From: a virus
Lineage: Duplodnaviria > Caudoviricetes
Virus record (IMG/VR): IMGVR_UViG_3300034374_009547
Length of the DNA: 64,000 bases
Reading direction: 5' to 3' (one strand)
The notes beneath the pieces were generated by a model that was given only the letters and a program-made list of their open reading frames with translations, was not told the origin of the DNA and made no database searches. A program made the translations under genes and the position numbers. Of this stretch, positions 39,061 to 54,934 are shown piece by piece. The stretch's first letter is position 1, and each line of letters begins with the position of its first letter.

Positions 39061-39803
39061 TTATAGCAGGTCACGGATTTGTAGGTAAAGCATATGAATG
39101 GTTGTTTGCTAACTATAGAAGAAAAATAGAAATACATGATCCTGCAAAAGGGTTTACAGCTGACTTTGATAATACAAGTGCAGTAATTATTTGTGTACCA
39201 ACACCGCAAGCAGATGACGGCTCTTGTGATATGAGTGCAGTTTATGATGTAGTAGGCAAGTGTAGACCAGATACACCAATAATGATCAAAAGTACAATTA
39301 GTTTGCAAGGATGGTATGAACTTAAAGACCGCTTTCCAAATCATAAATTTTGTTTTAGCCCAGAGTTTTTAAGAGCAGCAAATCACATGATTGATATTAA
39401 AAATATGGATACCTTTATTATTAGTGGTGATACAGAATACTGGCGTGATCAAATTAGTTACAACTGGCCACATATGCGTATACGCACCGTAAAACCTGAA
39501 GAAGCTATAGCAATAAAATATTTTAGAAATGCTTTTTTAGCAACTAAAGTTAGTTTTTTCAATGAAATATATGACTTTTGTTCAGCATACGATATCAGCT
39601 TTGATCAAGTTCAAGGCGGTATTATAGCAGATAAAAGAATAGGAGAAAGTCATAGTTACGTATGGCCAGATGAAGGGGTAAGAGGTTGGGGAGGATATTG
39701 TTTTCCAAAAGACACCAGTGCTCTATTAAAAATGGCAGCAGAAAAAAATATTAATCTAAATACACTAGAAGCAGCAGTTGAATACAATAAAAAAATACGT
39801 TGA
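39057..39803 (+). CDS. UDP-glucose/GDP-mannose 6-dehydrogenase-like protein lacking the C-terminal domain
   Basis: GHGFVG, CVPTP, IKST, SPEFLR, K...NAFLA.KVSF.NE and GGYCFPKD motifs. Confidence 0.85.
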   Translation: MIIAGHGFVGKAYEWLFANYRRKIEIHDPAKGFTADFDNTSAVIICVPTPQADDGSCDMSAVYDVVGKCRPDTPIMIKSTISLQGWYELKDRFPNHKFCFSPEFLRAANHMIDIKNMDTFIISGDTEYWRDQISYNWPHMRIRTVKPEEAIAIKYFRNAFLATKVSFFNEIYDFCSAYDISFDQVQGGIIADKRIGESHSYVWPDEGVRGWGGYCFPKDTSALLKMAAEKNINLNTLEAAVEYNKKIR

Positions 39804-39828
39804 CAATCAACAACTTAGGCAGTATAAT
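39800..39828 (+). promoter_or_regulatory. Consensus sigma70 promoter TTGACA-N17-TATAAT
   Basis: Perfect consensus; heads the clamp-dpdA block. Confidence 0.8.
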
Positions 39829-39848
39829 AAGAAACATAGGAGAAACAT

Positions 39849-40580
39849 ATGAAAGACATTCTACAAGACATTGTAAGCCATACACATTCGTTAGGCATTA
39901 TTTCAACACTTAAAATTACAACAGAAAATGATATCACAACTATTGAAAGTATGGCAGACGATAGAAGTGTTATTATGACAGCAACAACACATTCACCAGT
40001 AGGCGAATTTGTAGGTACATTTGGTATGCCTGATTTAGGTAAACTAGCTTATCATTTAAAAAATCCAATGTACAGAGAAAATGCTAAAATTGAAGTAATA
40101 AGTGCAGAACGCAACGGTGAAGTTGTTCCAACACATATTCACTTTGAAAACGATACAGGTGACTTTAAAAACGATTATCGTTTTATGATTAAAGAAATTA
40201 TCGAAGAAAAAATTAAAAAGTTTAGTTTTAAAGTTAATACATATGATGTAGAAATCCAGCCAAGAATTGGTAAAATTGAACAAATGAAATACATGCAAGG
40301 CGGACACACAGAAGAAACGGTGTTCCAAGTTAAAACTGAAAATGATAACTTGGTATTTTATTTTGGTGATGATGTAACACACGCAGGTAACTTTGTATTT
40401 GAGCAAGGTATTACTGGAAAACTAACACATACATGGGCATGGCCTGTTTCACAAACTATTGCTATTTTGAACTTGGATGGTGATAAAACTATGAGCATCA
40501 CAGACCAAGGTGCTATGAAGATTAGTGTAGACAGCGGCATGGCAAAATACGATTACATTCTACCGGCTCAACAAAAATAA
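39849..40580 (+). CDS. Putative sliding clamp (gp45/PCNA-like)
   Basis: 243 aa, alternating beta/alpha, C-terminal YDYILPA resembling the PCNA terminus; PolB and clamp loader are in the window. Confidence 0.55.
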   Translation: MKDILQDIVSHTHSLGIISTLKITTENDITTIESMADDRSVIMTATTHSPVGEFVGTFGMPDLGKLAYHLKNPMYRENAKIEVISAERNGEVVPTHIHFENDTGDFKNDYRFMIKEIIEEKIKKFSFKVNTYDVEIQPRIGKIEQMKYMQGGHTEETVFQVKTENDNLVFYFGDDVTHAGNFVFEQGITGKLTHTWAWPVSQTIAILNLDGDKTMSITDQGAMKISVDSGMAKYDYILPAQQK

Positions 40581-42136
40581 TGAAAACAAACCTAACTGAA
40601 ACACAAAAAGATTATGCAGTATTTTTACCTAGTATTAGCGGCTTTTATGGCACGTTTGTAGGTAAACAAAGATATGAAGATTATGTTGATCCTTCTCGTG
40701 TTCCAGCAGGTTTAGGCAATGTAGAAAGTCTTAATTTTTTAAATCCTAAAGACGGAGCATTCCATTACAAGTGGGCGCTCTATTCTGCTGGTCACGCAGA
40801 TTTAGATACGACTAAATTTGTTGATAAAGAAGATATGGTGCGTAACCGTGATAGAGATAATTCATGGTTGCTAGGCGACTCAGGTGGTTTCCAAATTGCT
40901 AAAGGGTTGTGGCCCGGTGACTGGACTAGCGAAACTTGTCCACATGCAAATAAAAAACGTGAGCTTGTTGTAAACTGGATGGAAGAATACATGGACTACG
41001 GAATGATGCTTGATATTCCTACATGGACCTTCCAAAGTGCAAAAGCAAGTAAAGCAACTAACATAAAAAGTTATGATGATGCTGTAAAAGCTACTCATAT
41101 TAATGCACGTTATTACATGAAACATAGACGTGGTAACTTTAAGGTATTAAACGTACTACAAGGCAGTAATCATACTAATGCCGATAGTTGGTATGAAGAA
41201 TTCAAAGGTTATTGTGATCCAAAACAATATCCAGATACACACTTTAATGGCTGGGCAATGGGTGGTCAAAACATGTGTGATGTTCATTTGATTTTACGCA
41301 GACTTGTACACATGATACACGATGGATTACTTGAACAAGGGCTGCATGATGTAATGCACTTCTTGGGCACAAGTAAACTAGAATGGGCTGTGTTACTTAC
41401 TGACATACAACGAGCTGTTCGCAAATATCATAATCCTAACTTTATGATTACATATGATTGTGCATCTCCTTTTCTTGCAACAGCAAACGGTCAAATTTAT
41501 CATAACATTAGATTAGATCACAAAGGCAAATGGAGTTATATTATGAGTCCAGGTGCTGACGCTTTGAAATATGCTAGTGATACTAGAAGTTTTATAGACG
41601 CAGTACTACAAGATGGCTTATTACCTACATTTGAAGAATCTCCTGTTAGTCAACACTGCAAAATGAATGATATTTGCATTTATGCTCCAGGCGATAAAAA
41701 CAAAGTTGGTACTATTAAAGTTGAAAAAGGTAAGCCAGAACTTGATAAACAAGGTAATCCTTTACTAGACGATAACGGAAATCCAATTATTATGCGTAAA
41801 GATAGCACAAGTTGGGATTCATTTAGTTATGCGCTACAAATGGGTCATAATGTTTGGATGCATATTGAAAGTACACAACGTGCAAACGAGCGTTATGATG
41901 CAGGAGAATATCCTTACATGATGGTATACGAACCAAGTATTAGACATGTGTTTAGAGATATTGTCAATGAAATCTTTGCACAAAAAGATCGTGAAAAAAG
42001 TCTTGCAGTTATTAACAAATATGGTGACGATAAATCGCTAAGTATTTGGACACACATTATTGGTACTAGATTGAAAGTTGGTAAGAAAACAATAACACCG
42101 GAAGCAAAAGCAGACGAATTATTTGATTGGGGTTGA
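40580..42136 (+). CDS. dpdA: TGT-fold guanine transglycosylase (DpdA-like, DNA 7-deazaguanine insertion)
   Basis: LGDSGGFQ, MMLDIP, VLQG, GWAMGG, MHFLG and YDCASP motifs of the TGT superfamily; linked to folE/queE/queD-like genes. Confidence 0.75.
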   Translation: MKTNLTETQKDYAVFLPSISGFYGTFVGKQRYEDYVDPSRVPAGLGNVESLNFLNPKDGAFHYKWALYSAGHADLDTTKFVDKEDMVRNRDRDNSWLLGDSGGFQIAKGLWPGDWTSETCPHANKKRELVVNWMEEYMDYGMMLDIPTWTFQSAKASKATNIKSYDDAVKATHINARYYMKHRRGNFKVLNVLQGSNHTNADSWYEEFKGYCDPKQYPDTHFNGWAMGGQNMCDVHLILRRLVHMIHDGLLEQGLHDVMHFLGTSKLEWAVLLTDIQRAVRKYHNPNFMITYDCASPFLATANGQIYHNIRLDHKGKWSYIMSPGADALKYASDTRSFIDAVLQDGLLPTFEESPVSQHCKMNDICIYAPGDKNKVGTIKVEKGKPELDKQGNPLLDDNGNPIIMRKDSTSWDSFSYALQMGHNVWMHIESTQRANERYDAGEYPYMMVYEPSIRHVFRDIVNEIFAQKDREKSLAVINKYGDDKSLSIWTHIIGTRLKVGKKTITPEAKADELFDWG

Positions 42137-42137
42137 T

Positions 42138-42359
42138 ATGAGTAACTTTACAGATGAAAAAGATAAACTAAAAAGCTACTTAGAAGAATTAAAACGAAAA
42201 CACAAAAAATTACATGAACAAATTGATCAATATCACGGTATTGAAGTCACTCCAGAAATAAGAAAACTTAAAACACATAAACTTTTTATAAAAGATGAAA
42301 TGCATAGAATTCAAACAAAACTTGAAAACTTAGGACATTACAAAAATGGACGAGCATGA
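42138..42359 (+). CDS. Small coiled-coil protein (DUF465/YdcH-like)
   Basis: LKRKHKKLHEQID...LKTHKL.IKDE. Confidence 0.55.
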   Translation: MSNFTDEKDKLKSYLEELKRKHKKLHEQIDQYHGIEVTPEIRKLKTHKLFIKDEMHRIQTKLENLGHYKNGRA

Positions 42360-42516
42360 AAAGAAAGTTAGATTAGAACATATTGATATGGCTTTAGAAG
42401 AACTTGATAAAATCATTGACACAATGAATAAAAAAGGCTATAGTAATGAAAAAATAAACGAGTTTAACAAACAACGTTGGAATCTTTGGAATGAAAGGTA
42501 TAGGCTTAAACAATGA
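42346..42516 (+). CDS. Small hypothetical protein (56 aa, not in track)
   Basis: Open frame; ATGA overlap with the next gene. Confidence 0.5.
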   Translation: MDEHEKKVRLEHIDMALEELDKIIDTMNKKGYSNEKINEFNKQRWNLWNERYRLKQ

Positions 42517-43019
42517 AACGAGATTATGATAGTGGTGTAACATCAGAAGGTGTAAACTTTTTTGTTGGTACTGAAGTAGAACACACACCGCAGTTTGGTA
42601 AGAAAACACTTTTTGTTGTAGGTGTACAAAACTTTGAAGAAATTGTAGAACACGCAGATAAAGCGGGTGTAGATCATATTTACTTGGGTGCTAATATGAG
42701 TTGGAGCAAGGACGAGTCTTGGGACGAAATGGTATTTCCATTGTTGAAAGACGGTTACTGGGTAACACTAGATTTTCCTGTGCAAGACATTGAATGGGTG
42801 CTAGAGTGCGGCTATACAGAATACAATCGCTTTATTCCAATGATTAGCGTAAAAATGCCTTACATTGATCTACTAGGTTACAATGCTTGTTTAAAAGTAG
42901 ATGACAAGGATTTTGATGCTACTAATCCAGGTGTATGGGTACATCGTGTACATGATTTAAAAGATAAATCAAAGTTTACAGATTGGTCTAAATACACCAC
43001 AGATGAAATTATCGCTTGA
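42513..43019 (+). CDS. Conserved hypothetical protein in the dpdA locus
   Basis: G.EVEHTP.FG..TLFV and NPGVWVH motifs. Confidence 0.65.
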   Translation: MKRDYDSGVTSEGVNFFVGTEVEHTPQFGKKTLFVVGVQNFEEIVEHADKAGVDHIYLGANMSWSKDESWDEMVFPLLKDGYWVTLDFPVQDIEWVLECGYTEYNRFIPMISVKMPYIDLLGYNACLKVDDKDFDATNPGVWVHRVHDLKDKSKFTDWSKYTTDEIIA

Positions 43020-43044
43020 CAATATGCAACAAGAACGTTATTAT
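43016..43044 (+). promoter_or_regulatory. Sigma70-like promoter TTGACA-N17-TATTAT
   Basis: Exact spacing; overlaps the annotated start of the QueD-like ORF, so the true start may lie downstream. Confidence 0.55.
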
Positions 43045-43473
43045 GAATATATGAAACGGCGCAACAGAGAAGAGGACGCTAAATTGAACGCATTAGAAAA
43101 TGCAAAACGCAGTATTTGGGTAACTTTTACAAAAGAAGGTATCCACAAGTATCCAGCAGCACTGGAAGATCCAGCACTGGCAACAGGTGATGAATATGAT
43201 GTAAGTTTCTTAGGTTATCCACATCGTCATATGTTCCATTTTAAAGTGCAAATTCAAGTTACACACAATGACCGTGACATTGAATTTATCCAGTTCAAAC
43301 GATGGCTGGAATCATTGTATGCAGGAGACATCTTGCAACTAGATTACAAGAGCTGTGAAATGATTGCAGACGACTTGTACACACAAATTAACAGCAAATA
43401 TCCCGGCCGGTTTGTTGTTATTGATGTCGCCGAAGATGGCGAAAACGGCTGTCAAATTGTATACCCAGCATAA
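43024..43473 (+). CDS. queD: QueD/PTPS-like T-fold protein (putative 6-carboxytetrahydropterin synthase)
   Basis: H...HRHMFHFKV zinc-His pattern and SCE(M) motif; location in the folE/queE/dpdA locus; divergent. Confidence 0.55.
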   Translation: MQQERYYEYMKRRNREEDAKLNALENAKRSIWVTFTKEGIHKYPAALEDPALATGDEYDVSFLGYPHRHMFHFKVQIQVTHNDRDIEFIQFKRWLESLYAGDILQLDYKSCEMIADDLYTQINSKYPGRFVVIDVAEDGENGCQIVYPA

Positions 43474-43487: not shown

Positions 43488-43676
43488 ATGACTATCTCTA
43501 ATCCGGTAGTAAATAAAATTTTTAACGATCTTGAGGAACTGCACGACTTCTGCAGAACTGAAGGTTATCCATTTAACCAAGCAGATTTGTATAAGAAAGA
43601 TGCTCGTGTATGGCAGGCATTTCAAAAATACAAAAATTGGGTCCGTGCTAGAAATCGCACCAAAGGACGCAAATAA
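43488..43676 (+). CDS. Hypothetical protein
   Basis: AAGGA RBS; TAATG coupling. Confidence 0.6.
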   Translation: MTISNPVVNKIFNDLEELHDFCRTEGYPFNQADLYKKDARVWQAFQKYKNWVRARNRTKGRK

Positions 43677-44851
43677 TGCGTAAGCTGTTTTACATGGGCT
43701 TAGAGCCCTATGAAGGCAGGTACACATTACAACTTGAAGAATGGAGTAGGCGTGCGTTTCAACGCCGCTCCATTGATTGGGTTAATGTACCTGGTACAAC
43801 TATTGACAATACAAAAGCAATTCAAGTAGGCCAAGTGTTAGATGCACATGGCCGTTCCTACTTTGCAATGTCGCAAATGATGAACTTGGTGCAAATGATG
43901 CGTAACGGTGAAGTTACAGGCGAAGATGTAGTTTTCTTTGAAGATATGTTCCAGCCTGGTATGGAATCGCTTCCGTATATTATGGATCAGATTCCCACTG
44001 AGCAACGTCCACAGGTTTGGATTCGTTGTTTAGCACAAGCAGTTGATCCAGATGACTTTGTGCATGTTTGGGGCATGGGCAAGTGGATGAGTTTGTATGA
44101 AGAAATGTGCAACGAGTTTGTTACTGGCGTACTAGCAAGTAATGAAGAAATGGTTGCACACATGAAGATTGCAAACTGGAAGGCTCCTATCTACAATGTT
44201 TCAGGTCTTGCATTTGATAAAACAGAAGTTGCTCTACGTGTTGGCGAGATCAACACTTGGGAAAAGCGTGACAATCGTGTGGTATTTGCAGCACGTTTTG
44301 ATCAAGAAAAACAACCAGACTTTTATATGGATTTGATTGAAGAATGGTATGGTACACCAGGTACAGCAGACGTGGAGTTTTGCATTGTGCAAGGTGGCCC
44401 GCTACGCAGTAACAATCAAAAGTATATTGATCGTGCCCGCAAAATGGAAGAGCGTGGACAACTGGTAATTTATGAAAACTTGAAAAAGAATCATTACTAT
44501 GATATTGTAAATCGTAGTAAAGTTTTGTTCAATTGTGCTTTGCAGGATTGGACAAGCAATACGGTAAGCGAAGCAGATGCATTAGGATGCAATGTGTTGT
44601 TTCCAGCGTATCGCAGTTTTCCAGAAATCTTTGCTAATGATCATACACGCATGTATGTGCCTTGGAGTGTTGAAGATGCAATGAACAAGTTAACGCCATT
44701 ACTAAAAAGCGCACATAAAGACTTAGGTAAGATAAGCGATTGGACTAGTGCAACTATTGATCGTTATATTGATATTATGCAAGGTAACGGTGAACAATGG
44801 CGTAGAGATAGCAATCGTTATCGTGATTATGTTGCGGAGACAAAATATTGA
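43676..44851 (+). CDS. GT-B fold glycosyltransferase
   Basis: FAARFDQEKQP, NCALQDWTSNTVSEADALGCNVLFP (E-x7-E-like region replaced by D-x7-E). Confidence 0.75.
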   Translation: MRKLFYMGLEPYEGRYTLQLEEWSRRAFQRRSIDWVNVPGTTIDNTKAIQVGQVLDAHGRSYFAMSQMMNLVQMMRNGEVTGEDVVFFEDMFQPGMESLPYIMDQIPTEQRPQVWIRCLAQAVDPDDFVHVWGMGKWMSLYEEMCNEFVTGVLASNEEMVAHMKIANWKAPIYNVSGLAFDKTEVALRVGEINTWEKRDNRVVFAARFDQEKQPDFYMDLIEEWYGTPGTADVEFCIVQGGPLRSNNQKYIDRARKMEERGQLVIYENLKKNHYYDIVNRSKVLFNCALQDWTSNTVSEADALGCNVLFPAYRSFPEIFANDHTRMYVPWSVEDAMNKLTPLLKSAHKDLGKISDWTSATIDRYIDIMQGNGEQWRRDSNRYRDYVAETKY

Positions 44852-45714
44852 GAGTATTGGTCACAGGTGCTACAGGTTATATTGGCAGTCATGTTTGTAA
44901 ACTACTAAAAGAGCATGGACATCACGTTACTGCTTGGGATATAAATATTCATGGTGAATACAATGACATCATGGCATATTGTGACCATTATTCTTCTTAT
45001 GATATAACTAAGTTTGTACATGGTGGCTTTGACGCCGTTGTACACTTAGCAGGACGCAGTGTAGTACCTGATAGTTTACGTGAACCTACAGAATATTATC
45101 GTGTAAACGTGATGGGTACTGCAAACTTGTTAGATCGTGTCGAAACACCACACATACTATTTGCAAGCACTAGTAGTGCTTGGGAAATGGCATCACCATA
45201 TGCACGTAGCAAAGTGGCAGCAGAAGATGTAATTAAGGAGAAAGCCAATGGATACACTATCTTTAGATTTTTTAACGTATCTGGTACTGACGGGCATAAT
45301 CGTCAACTGGGCGTTCCTACCCATCTTATTCGTGTTGCTGCTATGGTGGCTGCTGAAAAACTACCCAACATTAAGATCTTTGGTACGGACTATGATACTA
45401 GGGATGGTACTTGTATTCGTGATTATATTCATGTTGTTGATTTGGCTCGTGCCATTGTCAACGGAGTGGAACGAGGTCCAGCCAATACGGACTATGAGTG
45501 CCTTGGTAGCAACGTAGGTTATAGTGTACGAGAAGTAATCAGTACTATGGAGCAAGTTACTGGTAAAAAGTTAAATATCATTGAAGCAGAACGCAGAGAA
45601 GGCGATGCTGTTGCCAGTGTTGTAGACAACCTAAGTGATCTAGTTACACTGGAAAAAAGCATCGAAGATATGTGTTTGGATCAATACAAATTGGAAGTTG
45701 GTAAAAATGGATGA
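44848..45714 (+). CDS. galE: UDP-glucose 4-epimerase (extended SDR)
   Basis: TGATGYIG, YARSK, FRFFNV, GTCIRDYIHVVDLA. Confidence 0.9.
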   Translation: MRVLVTGATGYIGSHVCKLLKEHGHHVTAWDINIHGEYNDIMAYCDHYSSYDITKFVHGGFDAVVHLAGRSVVPDSLREPTEYYRVNVMGTANLLDRVETPHILFASTSSAWEMASPYARSKVAAEDVIKEKANGYTIFRFFNVSGTDGHNRQLGVPTHLIRVAAMVAAEKLPNIKIFGTDYDTRDGTCIRDYIHVVDLARAIVNGVERGPANTDYECLGSNVGYSVREVISTMEQVTGKKLNIIEAERREGDAVASVVDNLSDLVTLEKSIEDMCLDQYKLEVGKNG

Positions 45715-45937: not shown

Positions 45938-46277
45938 TCACAACAACGATACTATTACAATTACAACTGATGATTTGGATAAATCAGGCGTAACAATTCA
46001 AGGTCATTATTATGGAAATACTATTGATATAGGCACTATATCAACAAGCACACTTGAATACAATGGAATTGATGATTTAGTTTCGCTTGATGATTTTTCG
46101 ATTACACTAAATGATCCTGTTGAGTTTGAAGATCGTATGCCCGATGTTGCCAAGATAGAAGACATGTGCAATGATTATCCAGCACTAGCAAAAGCATATG
46201 AAAATTTTAAAACTATGTATGCTATGGTGCATCAAGACTGGAAAGGTCGACAAGAGGATGACCCACTTCCATTTTAA
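45930..46277 (+). CDS. Hypothetical protein
   Basis: GTG start; YPAL.KAYE.FK..Y motif. Confidence 0.6.
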   Translation: MRDHNNDTITITTDDLDKSGVTIQGHYYGNTIDIGTISTSTLEYNGIDDLVSLDDFSITLNDPVEFEDRMPDVAKIEDMCNDYPALAKAYENFKTMYAMVHQDWKGRQEDDPLPF

Positions 46278-46758
46278 CATAGAACCTGTATGGAATATGG
46301 AACGCTATCGTGCGTTAGACTATAAACTAGACCATCATAAAGATACAAATTTAATACAAAAATATTTAGATGCAGGGCATAGTGCAGAGGCTATGACCCT
46401 GTATAACTATTTTGAACCAAATCCTATGCCACCAAGTATAGAATATATTTGCAGTTATTTTCCTACACTTAAAAACATTTCAATTGCAGTCAACCTATTT
46501 AAGCCAGGACAATATTTGCCTGTACATACAGATCTATATGGTGCATATAAAAAATATCATGGTTTGACAAACGAAACAATTTATAGATATATTGTTATGC
46601 TAGAAGATGGTGTAGAAGGACAAATGTCTGTAATTGGAAACAGAGTTTACACCATGTGGAAAGCAGGACAAATATACGGCTGGCAAGATGATGAAAAACA
46701 CACATTTTATAACTTGAGTACAAAGGATAGATATGCAGTCCAAATTACAGGCACATAA
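46258..46758 (+). CDS. 2OG-Fe(II) oxygenase / cupin-like protein
   Basis: PGQYLPVHTD (HxD), R.IVML, G...W...H distal His; GAGG RBS before ATG 46258. Confidence 0.65.
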   Translation: MTHFHFNIEPVWNMERYRALDYKLDHHKDTNLIQKYLDAGHSAEAMTLYNYFEPNPMPPSIEYICSYFPTLKNISIAVNLFKPGQYLPVHTDLYGAYKKYHGLTNETIYRYIVMLEDGVEGQMSVIGNRVYTMWKAGQIYGWQDDEKHTFYNLSTKDRYAVQITGT

Positions 46759-48022
46759 CCGATACGACCAAGTTTTAGAAAAACTTTTCATTATATCAAT
46801 TAACAACAATACCAAGTTTGTAGATAAAGAATACAACTTATTACAAAGTATTGACCATGCTGTAGGTATACATCAAGTTTATACTCACGGATATTTAAAA
46901 ACTTTTAAAAAAAATTATATTGTAATACACGATATGGGAACTATAGACTATATTGAAAATTATTTTTTGAATAGTTATGAACGCAAATCATGTAACAATA
47001 AAGGTTTGTACATTTTTTTAACGGAACAAATATTACACACACATATTCCAGAACAAAAAATAATGTTAGATGGTGATAGCAATTTACCTAATATTTCTAT
47101 AGATTGGCAACAATCACAACACGATAAAATTTGGTCTCCTGAATTATCAAGTATTAATGAATTTGTAAAAAATAATCAATTAACAAATGTTTTTGTTTGT
47201 ATTAGTGCAGAAGATAAACATGGAATTTATGCGGGCAAATATAATTTTAACATACTTCGTAATGACGCTTATGTAAACGCAATAGCAACTTTTTTAGACA
47301 AAAATAAATCTCCAACCCAATTTTTTTCTAGTGATAAAATAGATACACATTTTTGGTGTGGTAATTGGGGATATAGACCGCACAGACACATTGTTACTGC
47401 TTTTGCTAGTAGCTTAGACACCTTGTATAGTTGGGGATATACAGATAGTAAACTTAATTTAGCAAATCATCTATGGTTTGATCCTAAAAAATTTAAGTAC
47501 AAAAAAGAATTACTACAATCGCTAAAACAATTACAACCAAACTCAATTGACATAGATACAGGGCAAACTGAAATCACAGGCACATTATTTGATGTAATGC
47601 TTAGACCCGAGTCTGAATACGAAGGTCCTGATTTAAAAAATTATTCAAGTAAAGAATTATTTTCAAATACATTTTGCAGTATTATTAACAGCAGTACATT
47701 TGGTGAACCATTTGCAGTATATGACGAAAAACCTTTAAATGCTATTATAAATTTTAGACCATTTATACTAGTTGGTCCAGCAGGCAGTTTAGAATTAATG
47801 AAAAAGGACGGTTTTAAAACATTTAGTGATTTTTGGAACGAAAGTTACGACAACGAATATAACCATCAAACAAGATTAGAAAAAATATTTGATTTGCTAT
47901 TAGAAATTGACTCTTGGAGTATTGAAAAATGTAAGCAAATGCACAAAGATATGTATAATATATTAATTCATAATTACAACAGAATAGGTAAAGATTTACA
48001 TGAAATGCGCAGCACTTTATAA
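46733..48022 (+). CDS. Glycosyltransferase-like protein (GT-B, GT10/exostosin-like C-terminal motif)
   Basis: DEKP..AI...RPFILVG...L..DGFKTF..FW.ESYD...R motif; very AT-rich. Confidence 0.5.
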   Translation: MQSKLQAHNRYDQVLEKLFIISINNNTKFVDKEYNLLQSIDHAVGIHQVYTHGYLKTFKKNYIVIHDMGTIDYIENYFLNSYERKSCNNKGLYIFLTEQILHTHIPEQKIMLDGDSNLPNISIDWQQSQHDKIWSPELSSINEFVKNNQLTNVFVCISAEDKHGIYAGKYNFNILRNDAYVNAIATFLDKNKSPTQFFSSDKIDTHFWCGNWGYRPHRHIVTAFASSLDTLYSWGYTDSKLNLANHLWFDPKKFKYKKELLQSLKQLQPNSIDIDTGQTEITGTLFDVMLRPESEYEGPDLKNYSSKELFSNTFCSIINSSTFGEPFAVYDEKPLNAIINFRPFILVGPAGSLELMKKDGFKTFSDFWNESYDNEYNHQTRLEKIFDLLLEIDSWSIEKCKQMHKDMYNILIHNYNRIGKDLHEMRSTL

Positions 48023-48926
48023 TCATACAAATATACGTGGTGGTAATCGTGTGTATCCTTGTTGTCGTTACAAGGAAAGTGTAATGCACTTTGATGGCAA
48101 TGTTGGTAAAATTATGCATAGTTATATGTATAATAAATTACGTGCAGATATGGAAGATGATTGGTTGCCGGGCTGTGGTAAATGCAAACACGAAGAAGAA
48201 CTAGGGGTAGAAAGTTTAAGACAACGGTTTAATTCTCGTTATCAAATGAGCAAACCTACACTGGATTATTTGGAAGTAGGGTTTGATAACATATGTGATT
48301 TAACTTGTGATGGTTGCTGGGAGGAATGGAGCAGCAGCTGGTGGGCTAAAAAGAATCCCGACCTGCCACACAAACAGGGAATTACCAGCACAGAAGAATT
48401 TACACATATACCCAACACTATAAATCGTGTGGTGTTTTTAGGTGGCGAACCACTTATGACAAATAGACACAGACGTTTTTTACAAACATTTGACAATTTA
48501 GAAAATCTATCTGTGGAATATTTTACAAATGGTATGCACAAATTACAAGAAGAAGATTACCAAGTTTTAAGCAAATGCAAACATGTACACTTTACAATCA
48601 GCATAGACGGTATAGGTGTTTTGAATGAACAGGTGCGTAGCGGTAGTGTTTGGAGCAGAGTGGTCAAAACATTAGATGAAATAGCAGATGTATTTGATTA
48701 TACAATACACAGCGTAGTGCATAAAAATAATTGGCACGGTTTACCAGAACTTGCAGAGTTTGCAAAAAAATATAAAAAATGGACAACAAATGTCTTGACA
48801 TTTCCTAAAGAACTGGATATAATAACACTAGAGCAGTGTGACAAAGCAAAACTAGAAAAAATATTGGATACATATGATATACCAAACAGGCAATATATTA
48901 AGGCACACTTACAAGGAGAAGCATGA
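48000..48926 (+). CDS. Radical SAM protein with N-terminal twitch/SPASM-like Cys cluster
   Basis: C...PCC...CGKC N-terminus; NICDLTCDGC; GGEPL; TNG; SIDG. Confidence 0.85.
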   Translation: MKCAALYNHTNIRGGNRVYPCCRYKESVMHFDGNVGKIMHSYMYNKLRADMEDDWLPGCGKCKHEEELGVESLRQRFNSRYQMSKPTLDYLEVGFDNICDLTCDGCWEEWSSSWWAKKNPDLPHKQGITSTEEFTHIPNTINRVVFLGGEPLMTNRHRRFLQTFDNLENLSVEYFTNGMHKLQEEDYQVLSKCKHVHFTISIDGIGVLNEQVRSGSVWSRVVKTLDEIADVFDYTIHSVVHKNNWHGLPELAEFAKKYKKWTTNVLTFPKELDIITLEQCDKAKLEKILDTYDIPNRQYIKAHLQGEA

Positions 48927-49537
48927 TGGACATGCGCAGTTATGAAAATTGGAGAGAACACGGTGCTGATGAAAGTAGTGTAGAAGAAGTAACTTGGAAT
49001 AATAACGATTTGCTTACACTACCTTGGGAAGCAACATATATGACAGACGAGATTCCAGAAGATAGTTCATGGGATACGTTTGCTACAAAAAATAAAAAAG
49101 CACTAGAAGCCATGTACAAACAATGGGGAGTACCTAAAGAAGGTAGTCTACATTATATGAGTATACGTCCAGAACTAACAAAAGGACTTGCTACACTTAT
49201 TGCTCCGTATGCACATATGAAGTTCAATTACAACTTCCTAAAACTAACACCAGGGTGTAGTTTAATGTGGCACTTTGATACATATGCTACATTTGTAAAG
49301 TTCAATAATATCGATGAAGCAGATGCACATCATGTTTGTAGGACCGTTGTGATGATGGATGACTGGGATAGAGGTCAAGTACTACAAGTAGGTGACGAAG
49401 TTTACACAGGCTGGAGTGCAGGAGATACATATACTTGGAAGGGTGATACTTGGCACGGTATGGCTAATTTTGGTCCTACTAATATTGTTATTGCTCAAAT
49501 AACATTCCTGGATGAAGATGACAAATATTCCCAATGA
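48923..49537 (+). CDS. 2OG-Fe(II) oxygenase / cupin-like protein
   Basis: PGCSLMWHFD (HxD), GQV...W..G..Y.W....WHG distal His. Confidence 0.65.
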   Translation: MMDMRSYENWREHGADESSVEEVTWNNNDLLTLPWEATYMTDEIPEDSSWDTFATKNKKALEAMYKQWGVPKEGSLHYMSIRPELTKGLATLIAPYAHMKFNYNFLKLTPGCSLMWHFDTYATFVKFNNIDEADAHHVCRTVVMMDDWDRGQVLQVGDEVYTGWSAGDTYTWKGDTWHGMANFGPTNIVIAQITFLDEDDKYSQ

Positions 49538-50420
49538 TAAGCGTGATATGGATTTTGGCAGTGCTTTTGCTATACAAGATCCAGAAACAATGCGTTTATT
49601 AAGAAAACATTATAACTTTATTGATCTCAATAATGACAGCATTATTGATGAATTTCTGCATGAATACGATACTTGGATTAAATCAGGTACACTAAATGTG
49701 TTTACTGGATTAGAAGATTTTGGTTACAAATGTTATAGTAATGGTACTACAGAAGCATTTGATAAATTTTATATGCGCAATGCTAAACGTAGATTCCGAT
49801 GCTATAAAGGCGAATATATGTATCATAGATTAGCGTGGAGAGACAAGTTTGTTTGGGCATATATTGAAGACGAACCGCTTCACAATGCAGATGCAGTAGT
49901 TATTAGTTTACCATTTGCGGATACAGGTGACAAACACGACAAGTATCACGATCTAATGCGTGAATGTAGTGAACTAGGAATACCAGTATTAGTAGATTGT
50001 GCATATTACGGTGCTTGTAGGCATATACACATAGACTTAGCGTATCCTTGTATTACAGACGTTACGTTTAGTTTGAGCAAAACATTTCCAGTTGCTTACG
50101 CCCGTATAGGTATGCGATATACTAAAGTAGATGACGACGATACAATGTTTGTGTATCACAAAATAAACTACAATAACAAAATAGGTGCATTACTTGGTTT
50201 AGAATATTTTGACAACTTTTCACCCGATTACATACCAAACAAATATATTGACAAACAAGCAGATTTCTGTAATACTATAGGAGTTAGTATTAGTAAAACC
50301 GTGCTATTTGGTATTGATTACAATAATAAGTTTCCGCAATACAACAGAGGCGGACGTACAAATAGACTGAGTTTTCATAAACAATATATTAAAGGATTAG
50401 ATATTGCCGGTACAAAGTAA
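49512..50420 (+). CDS. PLP-dependent fold-type-I enzyme (aminotransferase class I/II-like)
   Basis: NGTTEAF, VLVDCAY (Asp contacting PLP), FSLSKTF (Schiff-base Lys), RIG. Confidence 0.75.
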   Translation: MKMTNIPNDKRDMDFGSAFAIQDPETMRLLRKHYNFIDLNNDSIIDEFLHEYDTWIKSGTLNVFTGLEDFGYKCYSNGTTEAFDKFYMRNAKRRFRCYKGEYMYHRLAWRDKFVWAYIEDEPLHNADAVVISLPFADTGDKHDKYHDLMRECSELGIPVLVDCAYYGACRHIHIDLAYPCITDVTFSLSKTFPVAYARIGMRYTKVDDDDTMFVYHKINYNNKIGALLGLEYFDNFSPDYIPNKYIDKQADFCNTIGVSISKTVLFGIDYNNKFPQYNRGGRTNRLSFHKQYIKGLDIAGTK

Positions 50421-51462
50421 TAACGATTGGGATCCATTAGAAGAGATTATTATCGGCACAGCAGACAATTGTGTGCATCCTACTATGAATATTAGTACAC
50501 ATAGTTTTATATATGGTGGTGAACAATATGAAGATATCAAACACTTTAACGGGCAACCTATTGAACAATGGATTGTCGATGAAGCAAACGAAGATTTAGA
50601 TGGGTTAGAAAAGTGCTTAAAAGATTTAGGTGTTAAAACTAGACGTCCAAAAAGCATCGATCATAACCAAAAGTTTAGCACACCAGAATGGACTACTACA
50701 GGATGGTATACTTTCTGTCCAAGAGATTTGTTGTTGCCTTTAGACAATATGATTGTAGAATGTCCTAGCCCAATGCGAGCAAGATATTTTGAAACTAGAG
50801 CATACTATGACCATTTATATGAATGGATGAAAGAAGGTACACAATGGATTTGTGCGCCTAAACCTATTTTAACTGATGATAACTATCAATTGGAGGACCG
50901 TAGTGAAGCAACCCTTGTTAACAAAGAAATTATTTTTGATGCTCCTAATATCGTTCGTCTTGGTAGGGATCTTCTCTGCCAAGTTAGCAATAGTGGCAAC
51001 CAACTTGGTTTTGAATGGTTACGTACTATTTTAGAGCCAAAAGGCTATCGTATCCACGTAGCAGAAAAATATTATAGTTTTGCACACTTTGATAGCACCG
51101 TATTGCCACTGCGGCCTGGACTAGTGTTGTTTAATGCAGGACGCCTAAGCGAGGATTGGTATCCACCTATTTTTAAAGACTGGGACAAGATTTGGGTAGG
51201 TGAAGAAGATCTACACGTTCCGCCAGCAAACACAGGTGTTGCTCCTTGCTCACCTTATATTGGATTAAACTTTTTGAGTGTTAATCCAGAACTTGTTATT
51301 GTTGATGAAAAGCAAGAAGCACTTAGACGTATACTAGGCAAACATGGTATTGATACAATAGGCCTTCCAATGCGTCAAGCACGTAGCATGAGCGGAGGGT
51401 TTCATTGTGCTACACTAGACACTAAGCGCAAAGGCAGTTTGGAGGATTATTTTGCAACATAG
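50404..51462 (+). CDS. L-arginine:amine amidinotransferase (AGAT / StrB1-like)
   Basis: NDWDPLEEIIIG, CPRD, R.FE, FDA, HFDST, N.LS and GGFHCAT with catalytic Cys. Confidence 0.9.
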   Translation: MPVQSNNDWDPLEEIIIGTADNCVHPTMNISTHSFIYGGEQYEDIKHFNGQPIEQWIVDEANEDLDGLEKCLKDLGVKTRRPKSIDHNQKFSTPEWTTTGWYTFCPRDLLLPLDNMIVECPSPMRARYFETRAYYDHLYEWMKEGTQWICAPKPILTDDNYQLEDRSEATLVNKEIIFDAPNIVRLGRDLLCQVSNSGNQLGFEWLRTILEPKGYRIHVAEKYYSFAHFDSTVLPLRPGLVLFNAGRLSEDWYPPIFKDWDKIWVGEEDLHVPPANTGVAPCSPYIGLNFLSVNPELVIVDEKQEALRRILGKHGIDTIGLPMRQARSMSGGFHCATLDTKRKGSLEDYFAT

Positions 51463-51673
51463 TATAGAACAATGGATTGAACGTATAAATGCAATGAAAG
51501 ATATGTGTATTCAAGCACATAGATTGCGTAATCAATACAGCGAACAAGTTGAAGAAACATACAACTATGCACAAGTAAAAGATATACTAGAGCAAGTGCA
51601 ATCAATGGCCGCCGGTATTGCAAATGAAAAAATAACCGAAATTAAAACAGAAATGGATGAATGGAAAAAATGA
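51452..51673 (+). CDS. Hypothetical protein
   Basis: GGAGG RBS plus TTG start. Confidence 0.55.
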   Translation: MQHSIEQWIERINAMKDMCIQAHRLRNQYSEQVEETYNYAQVKDILEQVQSMAAGIANEKITEIKTEMDEWKK

Positions 51674-52224
51674 AACGCAAACATTATACTTGGGACGATG
51701 TACATAAATGTGCTCACAAACTAGCACTGGAAATGTACAAAACTGGATTCAAACCAGATTATATTGTAGGACTCAACAGAGGCGGTCTGCCTATCAGTGT
51801 TGTGTTAAGCCATTTATTAGACTGCGACCATTATGCGCTAGATGTACGGTTACGTGATAACAAAGGAGAAACTGGACCTGAATCTAACTGCTGGATGGCA
51901 GAAGATGCGTTTGGGTATGTATCTCAAATTGATAGAGATGATGTTTGGAGTAAATCTACTAGCGATACTGCTAAGAAAAAGAAAATTTTAATTGTAGATG
52001 ATATCAACGATACTGGTGCTACATTTAAATGGATTAAAGAAGATTGGCAAGCAGGTTGTTTACCAGATAGTCCAAACTGGGATACCATTTGGAATCAAAA
52101 TGTTCGCTTTGCTGTAATGTGTGAAAAAACACATACCGAGTTTGATGGGGTTGACTATGTATGGCAAACCATAGATACAGGTGAAGAAGATACATGGATT
52201 GTGTTTCCATGGGAATATGATTAA
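51661..52224 (+). CDS. Type I phosphoribosyltransferase (xanthine/guanine PRT-like)
   Basis: VGLNRGG, ILIVDDINDTGAT PRPP-binding loop, WIVFPWE. Confidence 0.88.
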   Translation: MEKMKRKHYTWDDVHKCAHKLALEMYKTGFKPDYIVGLNRGGLPISVVLSHLLDCDHYALDVRLRDNKGETGPESNCWMAEDAFGYVSQIDRDDVWSKSTSDTAKKKKILIVDDINDTGATFKWIKEDWQAGCLPDSPNWDTIWNQNVRFAVMCEKTHTEFDGVDYVWQTIDTGEEDTWIVFPWEYD

Positions 52225-52233
52225 GGAGATAAC

Positions 52234-52362: not shown

Positions 52363-52562
52363 AAGAACAACTAGTAAAAGCAGCACGTATGCACGCCGAA
52401 GGTGAGCTCGAAAGAGCAAAAACAAATATTATGGTTTACATGAACCAAAGTGTAGGTATTGGCGAACACAGCGATATCGTCGAAGCAATTCAAGAAGAAC
52501 TTGATAAAATGGCAGCGGCAGAAGATCGTATCGAAATGCTGAGAAAATATTTTGAGGGTTAA
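52359..52562 (+). CDS. Conserved phage hypothetical protein
   Basis: VGIGEHSD motif; AAGGAG RBS. Confidence 0.65.
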   Translation: MKEQLVKAARMHAEGELERAKTNIMVYMNQSVGIGEHSDIVEAIQEELDKMAAAEDRIEMLRKYFEG

Positions 52563-52579
52563 AAACCATAGTTAACCTA

Positions 52580-52608
52580 TTGACAAATAATCTAAATAAT
52601 GTTACTAT
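52580..52608 (+). promoter_or_regulatory. Sigma70-like promoter TTGACA-N17-TACTAT
   Basis: Exact spacing; upstream of folE. Confidence 0.7.
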
Positions 52609-52613
52609 AAACA

Positions 52614-52640
52614 ATAGACATCCTCGTCTATAACTCGGAG
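52614..52640 (+). promoter_or_regulatory. folE leader hairpin adjacent to the SD
   Basis: ATAGAC-ATCCTC-GTCTAT starts at about the predicted +1, followed by AACTCGGAG. Confidence 0.5.
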
Positions 52641-52646
52641 AATAAA

Positions 52647-53378
52647 ATGACAGAAGAAGTAAAAGGACTTAATACTGACAATGTTGAGCCTGTAAAGATT
52701 AGTCAAGTAGTACGTGAAAGACTACAAAAAAACGGTGTTCGTTTTTATGCAAATGACAATATTAGTGAACATATTAGTGAATTTGAATTACAAGAGATTC
52801 AAAACGAATTAAAATACAAGTTCCAAGATGTACTAGATACACTTATTATTGATACAGAAAACGATCCAAACAGCATGGATACTGCAAATCGTTTGGCGAA
52901 GATGTATATTCATGAATTGATGCGTGGAAGGTATTATCCGCAGCCTAATGCAACTGCATTTCCTAATCATACAGATGATGCGTATGATGGTATGCTTGTT
53001 GTGCGTAGCGAACTTAAAAGTGTTTGTTCGCATCACCATCAACCAGTTACAGGTGTAGCATATATTGGTATTCTTGCTGCTGATAAACTTATTGGATTAA
53101 GCAAGTATACACGTATTGCACAATGGTGTGCTAGACGTGGCACACTACAAGAAGAACTTGCAATGGATATCTGTAAAGAAATAATGAAAGTTACAGGTGC
53201 TAAAGATTGTGGTGTTTATATTCAAGCAACACACGGTTGCTGTGAAAATAGAGGCATTATGGCACATAGTAGTTTAACACAAACAAGTGTACTAAAAGGT
53301 GCGTTTAAAACTGATCCTGGTACAAAGAAAGAATTTTTTGATAACATTAAATTACAACAGGAGTTTGCACCGCGATGA
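52647..53378 (+). CDS. folE: GTP cyclohydrolase I
   Basis: SVCSHHHQP, IGLSKY.R, QEEL, ATHGCCENRG. Confidence 0.95.
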   Translation: MTEEVKGLNTDNVEPVKISQVVRERLQKNGVRFYANDNISEHISEFELQEIQNELKYKFQDVLDTLIIDTENDPNSMDTANRLAKMYIHELMRGRYYPQPNATAFPNHTDDAYDGMLVVRSELKSVCSHHHQPVTGVAYIGILAADKLIGLSKYTRIAQWCARRGTLQEELAMDICKEIMKVTGAKDCGVYIQATHGCCENRGIMAHSSLTQTSVLKGAFKTDPGTKKEFFDNIKLQQEFAPR

Positions 53379-54271
53379 AACTAAGATATAGTGAAGCATT
53401 TTATAGTGTGCAAGGCGAAGGCAAATTTGTAGGAGTACCTAGTGTATTCCTACGCACCTTTGGTTGTAACTTTCGTTGTATGAATTTTGGTGTGGATAAA
53501 AGTGTTGGCAGTCGTTGGGAGCAACACGCAAAAGGTCAACGCTACAACGCAGAAGTAAAACAACTGCTAGATGACGGTGTTCATGAAACTACAAAAGAGT
53601 TTAATGATTTGCCTATTGTGCATACAGGCTGCGATACATATGCAAGTATCTATCCAGAATTTAAACACTTCAATATGCTTAAAAGCGTAGATGAAGTTGT
53701 AGAACACTTGTTGAGTTTGTTGCCGGAAGGCAAATGGACTATGGATAATGGACAAGATGTTCATCTTATCCTTACAGGCGGCGAGCCATTACTTGCTTGG
53801 CAACGGTTGTATGTCGAGCTGTTTGAACACCCAGGTATGCAGGATCTAAAAAATGTCACAATCGAAACCAACACTACACAGCATCTACACGATGACTTCT
53901 ACAACTATCTCAATGGTCACGAAAGAATTCAGCTCACTTTTAGCTGTTCTCCCAAACTATCCGTATCGGGCGAGTCTTGGGATGATGCTATTAAGCCTGA
54001 TGTTGCTCGTGAGTATTCCCTTGTTGATGGCAGCAATATGTATTTTAAGTTTGTTGTTGCTGATCAGAGTGATGTTGACGAAGTTGGTAGAGCAGTTGAT
54101 ACCTATCGTAAAGCGGGCGTGGATGTTCCTGTATATCTCATGCCGCTTGGGGGTAGGTCGGAAGAATACACTCTCAACGTACAAGAGGTGGCGAACCTCT
54201 GTATGGAACGAGGGTGGAGGTTCTCGCCAAGACTCCACATTAGCCTATTCGGAAATGCCTGGGGCACTTAA
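53375..54271 (+). CDS. queE: 7-carboxy-7-deazaguanine synthase (radical SAM)
   Basis: EAFYSVQGEG...VFLRTFGCNFRC...CDT, LTGGEP, IETN, SPK, PRLH. Confidence 0.92.
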   Translation: MKLRYSEAFYSVQGEGKFVGVPSVFLRTFGCNFRCMNFGVDKSVGSRWEQHAKGQRYNAEVKQLLDDGVHETTKEFNDLPIVHTGCDTYASIYPEFKHFNMLKSVDEVVEHLLSLLPEGKWTMDNGQDVHLILTGGEPLLAWQRLYVELFEHPGMQDLKNVTIETNTTQHLHDDFYNYLNGHERIQLTFSCSPKLSVSGESWDDAIKPDVAREYSLVDGSNMYFKFVVADQSDVDEVGRAVDTYRKAGVDVPVYLMPLGGRSEEYTLNVQEVANLCMERGWRFSPRLHISLFGNAWGT

Positions 54272-54340
54272 AGAAAACCTAGATAGTATTCCAAAAGGCA
54301 TAAAAAGCGAAGAAGAATACGAACGCATAAGGAAACAACT

Positions 54341-54934
54341 TTGAGATTAATTACATTTGGTTGCAGTCTTACTTTAGGAAGCGGTTTAGAGGATGTAGGC
54401 ATTCGACCTGAGCATCCTAGTAAATTTGCGTGGCCAAATGTACTTTCTACTTTATTAGGATGCACTTTAGAAAATAAAGCTGCTGCTGGTGCTAGTAACA
54501 AACAAATACAAAAGTTAGTTCAAGAATACAATTTTGTAAGTAACGATGTAGTGGTAATTTTATGGAGTCATAAAGACAGATGGTGTGTTTTTGACGGTGA
54601 TTTTACAAATCAAATTAATGCATGGGATAGTGACATAAAAAGTAAAATGTTTTTTAAATTTTTGCACAATGACACAGATATGTCTATGGATCTACATAAC
54701 AGAATACATTATGTAAATATGTATCTAAACAATAAAAAAATTAAAAACTTTCATTTATATGCAGATATTATGTATAAAAATACATATAAATGGTTTGATG
54801 TTGATATGCTCCATACAAACATGGCAGAACTAAGACATGCAAATCCACCAGCAAAATATGACCATCATCCGGGTATTGAAGCACATAGTATATTTGCTAA
54901 TCAAGTGTATAAAGAAATAAAGGAAAAAATATGA
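54341..54934 (+). CDS. SGNH/GDSL-like hydrolase or acyltransferase
   Basis: FGCSLT.G, N.A..GASN, DHHPG..AH; AT-rich. Confidence 0.6.
   Translation: MRLITFGCSLTLGSGLEDVGIRPEHPSKFAWPNVLSTLLGCTLENKAAAGASNKQIQKLVQEYNFVSNDVVVILWSHKDRWCVFDGDFTNQINAWDSDIKSKMFFKFLHNDTDMSMDLHNRIHYVNMYLNNKKIKNFHLYADIMYKNTYKWFDVDMLHTNMAELRHANPPAKYDHHPGIEAHSIFANQVYKEIKEKI

Follow-up and report, generated by a model that had tools for sequence, protein, structure and literature searches.

The 64,000-nucleotide window analysed here (IMGVR_UViG_3300034374_009547; bases 47183-111182 of a 113.7-kb IMG/VR viral contig; coordinates are those of the window unless marked as genome) comes from a marine jumbo phage whose lineage is related to Pseudomonas phage PA5oct, and carries, within its replication module, a system for the replacement of guanine. 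The central element of this system is a 518-amino-acid (aa) DpdA2-like protein encoded among genes for 7-deazaguanine synthesis, a GT-B-like glycosyltransferase (GT391) and a small protein (p168). Considering all of the evidence, it is probable that the system replaces guanine by means of a clamp-tethered DpdA2-like enzyme, and that GT391 acts on the inserted base.

The contig was rated 32% complete by CheckV, which, at 113.7 kb, points to a jumbo phage of roughly 350 kb, and nearly all of its predicted genes are located on the + strand. When 50,697 phage records were searched with the locus by megablast, no match and hence no near-identical cultured phage was found. By protein comparison, the nearest phages are PA5oct and Vibrio phage 2.275.O, which have in common with the window the gene order family B polymerase, 243-aa protein and 518-aa protein, then QueE and RNaseH. 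In total, 269 IMG/VR stretches encode relatives of the 518-aa protein; the best 80 loci, 65-81% identical, were compared, and one relative contig is 330 kb in length (93% complete). The counts for GT391 and for the cassette use only those loci where the sequence reaches far enough, referred to below as assessable. The core order of the lineage is polymerase, NT, PMM, UGDH-like, clamp-like protein, DpdA, s78, p168, DpdL, GT391, SDR, a variable slot, PRTase, s67, FolE, QueE, p127 and RNaseH. The three genes that bear on the base exchange itself are as follows.

34588..37251, + strand: family B DNA polymerase (context), 51% identical to the PA5oct 'DNA polymerase'; ends ...SLFEWG.
39849..40580, + strand: putative sliding clamp (P0002), 243 aa, encoded between the genes for the polymerase and DpdA in all 80 relatives as well as in PA5oct and Vibrio 2.275.O.
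40580..42136, + strand: predicted DpdA2-like DNA guanine transglycosylase (P0001), 518 aa, with a tRNA-guanine transglycosylase (TGT) fold, the invariant residues, an hhalign alignment to DpdA2 and the C-terminal tail ...ELFDWG.

The ATG of the transglycosylase gene overlaps the stop of the 243-aa gene (39849-40580) by base 40580. The 518-aa protein is recognised neither by the models of Pfam, NCBIfam and PADLOC nor by sequence search of the PDB, and a profile search of the PDB with its family returned only QTRT1 (E 2.2). An exhaustive HMMER search nevertheless yielded homologues in 900 clusters at 50% identity (E <= 0.001), 562 of them at E <= 1e-10. In a 45-member alignment of the family, D100, S101, G103 and Q105 of the DSGGFQ motif, as well as D145, P147, H260, G263 and D293, are invariant. 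The AlphaFold2 (AF2) model of the protein (predicted local distance difference test, pLDDT, 89.9; predicted template modelling score, pTM, 0.89) was compared with the PDB using Foldseek, and all of the top 50 matches were tRNA-guanine transglycosylases (best E 6.5e-7; TM by target ~0.53). Among viral structure models (BFVD), the DpdA2 of Vibrio phage nt-1 (R9TGF0) was matched at 5.4e-9, as against 3.5e-3 for the DpdA3 of Cellulophaga phage phiST (M4SLA5). Of four phage genomes searched with the family profile, only that of nt-1 gave a match, its DpdA2 (E 5.7e-6), and those of phiST, Campylobacter phage CP220 and 9g gave none. By hhalign, the transglycosylase was aligned with nt-1 DpdA2 at 93.5%, with the DpdA2 of Acidovorax phage ACP17 (ASD50403) at 96.6% (E 5.5e-10) and with a 416-aa protein of the T4-like Synechococcus phage BUCT-ZZ01 at 93.4%. 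In all three alignments, the catalytic motifs are in register. Thus, based on the fold, the motifs and the profile homology, the 518-aa protein is a divergent member of the DpdA2 branch rather than a tRNA TGT, and it is predicted to act on DNA by guanine exchange.

Since the fold is that of tRNA-guanine transglycosylases, the system could in principle alter or boost queuosine-type modification of the host rather than act on DNA. Such a target is hardly credible, as the Pfam TGT model (PF01702), matched by 14 of 14 control genomes, finds nothing at E <= 1 across the 113.7-kb record, and no more than one of the 45 members of the family reaches E 0.088. In addition, the closest relatives by profile are DpdA2 proteins, the gene lies between the clamp and RNaseH genes, its product has a polymerase-like tail, and the DNA of PA5oct is restriction-resistant. 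PA5oct has an orthologue of the transglycosylase, DpdL and QueE; a deazaguanine synthesis and incorporation system was noted in this phage (Iyer 2021, PMC7824862), the DNA of which resists five G-containing restriction enzymes (PMC12191111). Vibrio phage 2.275.O was listed with deazaguanine genes and without DpdA (Hutinet 2019); its orthologue of the transglycosylase adjoins QueF, YhhQ, QueC, Gat and FolE. The DpdA2 of nt-1 inserted preQ0 into DNA (Cui 2023, PMC10516641).

An earlier note on this DNA, prepared from the letters alone, had proposed a 7-deazaguanine DNA modification locus and had suggested placing its TGT-fold enzyme among the DpdA subfamilies and the tRNA TGTs. By profile, the enzyme goes with DpdA2 and not with tRNA TGT, and the proposed locus is upheld by the DpdA2 profile alignment, the failed tRNA-TGT Pfam model and the position in the replication module. 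The genes that had been named, namely those for the TGT-fold, QueD-like, FolE, QueE, GT-B, short-chain dehydrogenase/reductase (SDR), radical S-adenosylmethionine (SAM), amidinotransferase, phosphoribosyltransferase (PRTase), oxygenase and aminotransferase-like proteins, are indeed present on the + strand close to where they had been placed.

The transglycosylase and the polymerase end alike. In the 113.7-kb record, ends of this type are found only in the polymerase (...SLFEWG) and the transglycosylase (...ELFDWG). Among the relatives, the polymerase ends in TFNxLF[ED][WF] and the transglycosylase in F[GN]ELFEE or LW[DE]; the corresponding tails in Vibrio 2.275.O are DLFDW and DLFGW. The 243-aa protein, with a mean identity of 71% among the relatives, matches phrog_12062 (function unknown). 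Complex prediction for this protein and residues 479-518 of the transglycosylase gave a score of 0.71, compared with 0.30 for the best control, and passed a mark that 51 of 78 solved complexes reach, as do 2 of 108 mismatched pairs. At least 84% of contacts recur between runs, and the pLDDT of the partner is 62. The predicted contacts on the 243-aa protein comprise residues 36-42, 123-129 (under the mid-chain/interdomain linker), 197-199, 220-222 and 237-243 (C-terminus). As a prediction, the model supports binding of the transglycosylase tail to the putative clamp. A clamp-type tail on a transglycosylase was not found described in the literature. If this reading is right, a clamp-binding tail on a DNA transglycosylase would provide a simple mechanism for near-complete, replication-coupled base replacement.

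The genes that may supply the base are the following.

52647..53378, + strand: GTP cyclohydrolase I (FolE), Pfam PF01227 1.1e-38.
53375..54271, + strand: 7-carboxy-7-deazaguanine (CDG) synthase (QueE), phrog_2076 6.5e-52; 31-38% identical to the annotated QueE of PA5oct and BUCT-ZZ01.
Genome 34759-35208, outside the window: true QueD, which keeps C-RFL-HGY.
43003..43473, + strand: DpdL-type QueD paralogue, 156 aa, a predicted CDG decarboxylase with the motif L-GYP-HRH-M-F = LxxxHRHxF.
9274..9888, + strand: QueC-like PP-loop ATPase, Pfam QueC 37.7 bits, 31 kb upstream and adjoining a radical SAM gene.
51661..52224, + strand: purine-type PRTase, Pfam PF00156 2.2e-12; the closest solved structures are purine/6-oxopurine phosphoribosyltransferases.

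The open reading frame (ORF) that closes the interval at 54341-54934 is not QueE, which is encoded at 53375-54271. The QueD-like gene of the earlier note does encode a QueD paralogue; what had been missed is the signature of DpdL, LxxxHRHxF as opposed to the CxxxHGH of QueD (Cui 2023, PMC10516641), and that the true QueD lies outside the window. The paralogue aligns with the DpdL proteins of phiST (gp040), ACP17, X1 and BUCT-ZZ01, and is 36% identical to phiST gp040 (tblastn E 3e-11; also found in phi13:1 and phi19:2 at the gp040 position), 54% to ACP17 ASD50405 and 64% to PA5oct EST35_0318. By mass spectrometry, all G in phiST DNA is replaced by 2'-deoxy-7-deazaguanosine (dDG) (Cui 2023, PMC10516641), and this, together with the DpdL homology, makes 7-deazaguanine the default prediction for the window. 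By analogy with phiST, the base is therefore most likely to be 7-deazaguanine, possibly glycosylated further. Plain 7-deazaguanine, the predicted product of the DpdL that had been missed and the default base here, is a known end product.

As had been claimed, no QueF was matched in the 113.7-kb record. QueC gave only weak matches in the 93%-complete relative contig and none in PA5oct, so continuation of the pathway to preQ0 is possible and not favoured. The radical SAM gene at 9767-10732 overlaps the QueC-like gene, and its product resembles an SkfB/PqqE-type maturase of Synechococcus phage S-SCSM2R (24% identity, E 2e-16). The QueC-like gene may belong with the radical SAM chemistry of the genome rather than with preQ0 synthesis.

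The PRTase gene adjoins FolE in the relatives and QueE in BUCT-ZZ01, and the enzyme would recycle the excised guanine into GTP for FolE. The same gene neighbourhoods, in the lineage as well as in BUCT-ZZ01, would also suit a pre-replicative route, where the PRTase makes a deazaguanine ribonucleotide that is reduced and phosphorylated to a deoxynucleoside triphosphate and incorporated by the polymerase, leaving the TGT-fold protein a secondary role or one in proofreading. In the biosynthesis of toyocamycin and tubercidin, preQ0 or CDG serves as a PRTase substrate. The 7-amido-7-deazaguanine (ADG) nucleoside was detected in CP220-infected cells, as cited in Cui 2023 (PMC10516641). This route is nevertheless quite improbable: no member of the lineage is without the transglycosylase, whose catalytic residues are all retained, PRTase is missing from the clusters of ACP17 and X1, and neither a dedicated kinase nor a dGTP-clearing enzyme was seen in the locus. 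Furthermore, Cui 2023 (PMC10516641) argue that the known deazaguanine DNA marks are all post-replicative.

GT391, p168 and the genes for sugar nucleotides flank the transglycosylase on both sides.

37778..38215, + strand: NT, cytidylyltransferase-like sugar-phosphate nucleotidyltransferase, Pfam PF01467 1.2e-15 and phrog_7878 5.8e-35; in 71 of 80 related loci.
38347..39060, + strand: PMM, phosphomannomutase, Pfam PF03332 2.2e-27; in 63 of 80 related loci.
39057..39803, + strand: UDP-glucose/GDP-mannose dehydrogenase-like (UGDH-like) protein, 248 aa, Pfam PF00984 2.3e-23 and PF03721 3.3e-8; in 60 of 80 related loci.
42513..43019, + strand: p168, small alpha/beta domain, in 76 of 80 relatives; 33% identical over the full length to the ACP17 ORF between FolE and DpdA2.
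43676..44851, + strand: GT391, GT-B-like (GT4-like) glycosyltransferase, the most conserved gene of the module; assigned from PDB profile matches.
44848..45714, + strand: SDR, epimerase/dehydratase for nucleoside diphosphate (NDP) sugars, Pfam Epimerase 4.8e-37 and GDP_Man_Dehyd 1e-25; follows GT391 in the relatives.

GT391 is kept in 54 of 54 assessable relatives, among which its mean identity is 83%, as against 73% for DpdA. A PDB profile search with 14 GT391 homologues gave 13 matches, 11 of which are glycosyltransferases or GT-B sugar enzymes and 9 of group-1/GT4 type; the matches include CapJ (E 0.0017), group-1 transferases, WbaZ, WaaG and PimA, at positions 143-387. An E-x7-E-type motif of the C-terminal nucleotide-sugar domain is present, with E299, A300 and E317 invariant. 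An identification as queuosine mannosyltransferase, suggested by Atlas clusters, was rejected; the QTMAN_N and GT4-conflict models match nothing in the genome.

Outside the lineage, homologues of GT391 were found in only 5 of the 50,697 phage records, namely BUCT-ZZ01 (69% identical), ACP17 (two records), X1 and BUDD, and all five also hold DpdL. The gene string of ACP17 is QueD, FolE, p168 homologue, DpdA2, GT391 homologue, DpdL and QueE; that of X1 is FolE, three genes, GT391 homologue, "queuine tRNA-ribosyltransferase", DpdL and QueE; and that of BUCT-ZZ01 is QueE, xanthine-guanine PRTase, QueD, FolE, a 447-aa protein, the DpdA2-like protein, DpdL and GT391. In the last of these, the 447-aa protein was rejected as the transglycosylase, which is the 416-aa protein. 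The phages fall into Busanvirus, an unclassified Xanthomonas group and Kyanoviridae, all of them unrelated to the jumbo lineage, and the ACP17, X1/BUDD and BUCT-ZZ01 groups are without sugar-nucleotide genes and cassette. By gene linkage, GT391 belongs to the deazaguanine module. No paper tying a glycosyltransferase to DpdA/deazaguanine DNA systems was found in the literature: the DpdA2/DpdL system is partly described already, and its obligatory GT-B partner was not found described.

Compared with the BUCT-ZZ01 homologue (L099:12001-13167), GT391 is 69% identical, whereas its neighbours DpdA and DpdL are far more diverged (38% for DpdL), which suggests recent transfer of GT391 between unrelated phage lineages. 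The p168 family comprises 5836 clusters at 90% identity in metagenomes, including Tara Oceans samples. In ACP17, the homology to p168 (L098:7239-7718) begins 87 bases 5' of the start annotated for ASD50402 and overlaps the FolE gene at its annotated end; thus, the ACP17 gene is probably longer than annotated. The dehydrogenase-like protein of the window is short, with a partial NAD domain, a central domain and no C-terminal domain detected, and its relatives are 43-77% identical.

As for the acceptor of the sugar, a hydroxymethyl-pyrimidine was considered and rejected as unlikely, since no ThyA-type hydroxymethylase was found in the 93%-complete relative, ACP17 or BUCT-ZZ01, a test of ThyA-family enzymes in three genomes that leaves TET/JBP-type routes outside.

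Between SDR and PRTase, the window carries a variable cassette of six genes.

46198..51462, + strand: variable cassette, from OXa to the amidinotransferase.
46198-46758, + strand: OXa, oxygenase-like, 44% identical to the annotated 2-oxoglutarate (2OG)-Fe(II) oxygenase of S-SCSM2R; paralogue of OXb.
46733-48022, + strand: p429, 429 aa, no family match in any search.
48000-48926, + strand: radical SAM protein, Pfam 2e-9.
48923-49537, + strand: OXb, oxygenase-like, paralogue of OXa.
49512-50420, + strand: aminotransferase-like protein (a pyridoxal phosphate, PLP, enzyme), 302 aa, near viral Aminotran_1_2 clusters.
50404-51462, + strand: amidinotransferase, matching StrB1 (1bwd) at E 1.5e-86 over residues 4-349, and HsvA, SxtG and AGAT at E 1e-55 to 1e-64.

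The DegT model does not match the 302-aa protein, and the one match of the 2OG-FeII_Oxy_3 model lies outside the window. In 29 loci, less than 1.5 kb separates SDR from PRTase; two loci hold other DNA in this slot, and 13 of 44 assessable loci carry the cassette there, consisting of radical SAM, OXb, aminotransferase and amidinotransferase genes with or without OXa and p429. Across relatives (L018-L097) whose DpdA proteins are 69-81% identical, the identity of the amidinotransferase is 85-95%, which indicates that the cassette moves or sweeps separately from the DNA on either side of it, as an exchanged cassette would. The closest cultured homologue of the amidinotransferase (36%) is that of S-SCSM2R, encoded beside a 2OG oxygenase, a radical SAM protein, a PLP-type enzyme and five glycosyltransferases. 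No QueE was found in S-SCSM2R, so the tie of the cassette to guanine is unproven. The neighbours of the CP220 homologue are five radical SAM genes, two GT-A genes and one for a PAP2 phosphatase. A second pair of amidinotransferase and 2OG-Fe(II) oxygenase (PF13640, 22 bits), which mirrors that of the cassette, is encoded outside the window at genome 14668-16336 on the - strand. The cassette is most likely an exchangeable add-on that tailors an amino or guanidino sugar.

The tailoring set thus splits into a core (DpdA2-like protein, p168, DpdL, GT391 and SDR) and a variable, optional cassette that makes up its larger part, and this supports the earlier interpretation, a pathway to an undescribed hypermodified guanine, only in part. 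It is sustained by GT391 and p168, which travel with DpdA2 and DpdL in unrelated phages, and it fails for the radical SAM protein, oxygenases, PLP enzyme and amidinotransferase, which form the cassette present in 13 of 44 relatives. As regards the glycosyltransferases then announced, the transferase at 43676-44851 is borne out as GT-B-like, and no family assignment is supported for the 429-aa 'GT-like' protein. The caveat that the tailoring genes may act on virion glycans is the better reading for the cassette, given its homologue in QueE-less S-SCSM2R.

A broader form of that caveat would confine DNA modification to FolE, QueD, QueE, DpdL and DpdA, yielding plain dDG as in phiST. The glycan made by GT391, p168, the NDP-sugar genes and the cassette would then go elsewhere, to virion proteins, the host envelope or a small molecule, and these genes would share no more than an early or middle gene string with the others. 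This reading is consistent with the cassette homologues among GT2/GT25 transferases in S-SCSM2R and, close to the baseplate genes of CP220, among genes for radical SAM, GT-A and PAP2 proteins, with the second amidinotransferase and oxygenase pair at genome 14668-16336, and with the production of dDG by phiST without GT391. However, GT391 adjoins DpdA2/DpdL in three further unrelated groups devoid of sugar-nucleotide genes and cassette, it is confined to DpdL-bearing records among the 50,697 searched, and no assessable relative (54 of 54) lacks it. For these reasons, a plain dDG product with a separate glycan is considered unlikely.

Under the preferred reading, in which GT391 acts on the base, FolE, QueD (elsewhere in the genome) and QueE would convert GTP to CDG, as established for this pathway, and the DpdL-type paralogue, judging from the phiST precedent, would convert CDG to 7-deazaguanine. 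The transglycosylase, in view of its fold, catalytic residues and DpdA2 homology, would then take guanine out of phage DNA and put the deazaguanine base in. According to the common tail and the complex model, it may ride the sliding clamp via its polymerase-like tail, in which case the base exchange would follow the replication fork. The PRTase might return the released guanine towards GTP. Conserved gene linkage suggests that GT391, together with p168, acts on the deazaguanine base, most likely by adding a sugar in DNA, and that the sugar donor is made by the phage NT, PMM, dehydrogenase-like protein and SDR. The cassette would be an exchangeable add-on, probably for tailoring an amino or guanidino sugar.

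Several points weigh against this scheme. The 243-aa protein has no Pfam match, and a PDB search with a profile built from 19 homologues retrieved no clamp; the PA5oct transglycosylase is without the tail. The QueC-like gene (9274-9888) could extend the pathway to preQ0. The decarboxylase activity of DpdL is unproven, and ACP17 DpdL and DpdA produced no dDG in E. coli (Cui 2023, PMC10516641), where further enzymes are perhaps needed according to the same authors. The match of GT391 to Pfam Glycos_transf_1 (22.5 bits, E 8.9e-5) is below the cut-off of 26.4, and 7-deazaguanine has no obvious hydroxyl for sugar attachment. The AF2 model of p168 (pLDDT 75.9) has no recognisable fold, as all Foldseek matches in the PDB and AFDB other than those to its own family had E above 0.02; p168 is also without a Pfam model or a usable Atlas match, and VIA-align gave Z <= 6.7 (STAS-like folds and partial barrels; QueE 6.2), which is under the meaningful level of the tool. 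Finally, the case for this lineage, as for all GT391 phages, is built from genes and models.

To our knowledge, eight deazaguanine DNA marks are known, none of them with a sugar. The strict association of a glycosyltransferase with DpdA2 and DpdL, seen in four unrelated phage groups, points to a mark of a ninth kind, and cultured members are available for three of these groups (ACP17, X1/BUDD and BUCT-ZZ01). A role for GT391 would also explain the missing dDG from ACP17 DpdL and DpdA in E. coli, as two conserved genes of the cluster were omitted. It can be put forward, tentatively, that phages with DpdA2, DpdL and GT391 carry a glycosylated 7-deazaguanine, the first sugar-bearing purine in any genome, installed behind the fork by a clamp-tethered enzyme, and that in the jumbo lineage the sugar would be phage-made and, from one close relative to another, diversified by the exchangeable cassette into amino or guanidino sugars at the positions of guanine. 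Irrespective of the sugar, the transglycosylase family is large (900 clusters, 269 IMG/VR loci) yet invisible to Pfam, NCBIfam and PADLOC, and deazaguanine genomes are thus probably undercounted in marine viromes.

Two further genes of the window complete the feature list.

42123..42359, + strand: s78, 78-aa protein, kept in 61 of 80 relatives; Pfam matches weak, under the cut-offs.
54341..54934, + strand: 197-aa protein, SGNH-hydrolase-like by eye; no family match and not found in relatives within reach.

The polymerase of the window (34588-37251) is a single uninterrupted frame of 887 aa, whereas that of PA5oct is split by a homing endonuclease (L004:8605-13831). Between the polymerase and NT lies a 179-aa ORF (37242-37781) without a family match, which was not found in the 80 related loci. 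Directly 5' of the QueC-like gene, a Bax inhibitor-1/YccA-type membrane protein is encoded (8594-9277; Pfam Bax1-I 5.4e-57), an unusual phage cargo.

Among known systems, the cassette resembles the clusters of S-SCSM2R and CP220, with amidinotransferases 36% and 30% identical, respectively, an adjacent oxygenase 44% identical, and radical SAM and PLP-type genes alongside; in those phages, the genes are located among GT2, GT25 and GT-A transferases, far from any transglycosylase. The T4 DNA glucosyltransferases are likewise GT-B enzymes encoded among base-modification genes, a likeness by description and not by sequence, but they require a hydroxymethyl acceptor, which the 93%-complete relative, ACP17 and BUCT-ZZ01 appear unable to make. 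HuiG of huimycin biosynthesis glycosylates a 7-deazapurine directly with UDP-GlcNAc as donor (bioRxiv 10.64898/2026.04.15.718813); it differs in acting on a free base in secondary metabolism, and here, too, the comparison is one of description rather than sequence.

The dDG system of phiST (FolE, QueD, QueE, DpdL and DpdA3; Cui 2023, PMC10516641) has in common with the phage described here FolE, QueD, QueE and a DpdL with LxxxHRHxF, no clear QueC (apart, in the window, from the QueC-like gene 31 kb upstream), no QueF, and a TGT-superfamily transglycosylase beside the polymerase gene. Its transglycosylase is, however, a DpdA3 of 259 aa and not of the 518-aa DpdA2 kind, and its cluster has MazG and is without homologues of GT391, p168 and the PRTase. 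PA5oct (Wroclawvirus) has the same order of polymerase, clamp-like protein, transglycosylase (35% identical), DpdL (64%), QueE and RNaseH, and a modified G inferred from restriction resistance (PMC12191111), whereas GT391, SDR, NT, PMM, UGDH-like protein, PRTase and cassette are absent from its locus and its p168 homologue is 27 kb distant. The DpdA2 clusters of ACP17 and nt-1 (Hutinet 2019; Cui 2023) encode a homologous transglycosylase, although the catalytic core is only ~20% identical and the C-terminal region of the protein described here is 130 aa longer and ends in the clamp-type tail. In nt-1, QueC and ArcS-type chemistry (preQ0, G+) are found instead of DpdL, while in ACP17 all of the seven parts listed above stand in one string. 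To the clusters of these two phages, the locus described here adds the sugar-nucleotide genes, the PRTase and the variable cassette.

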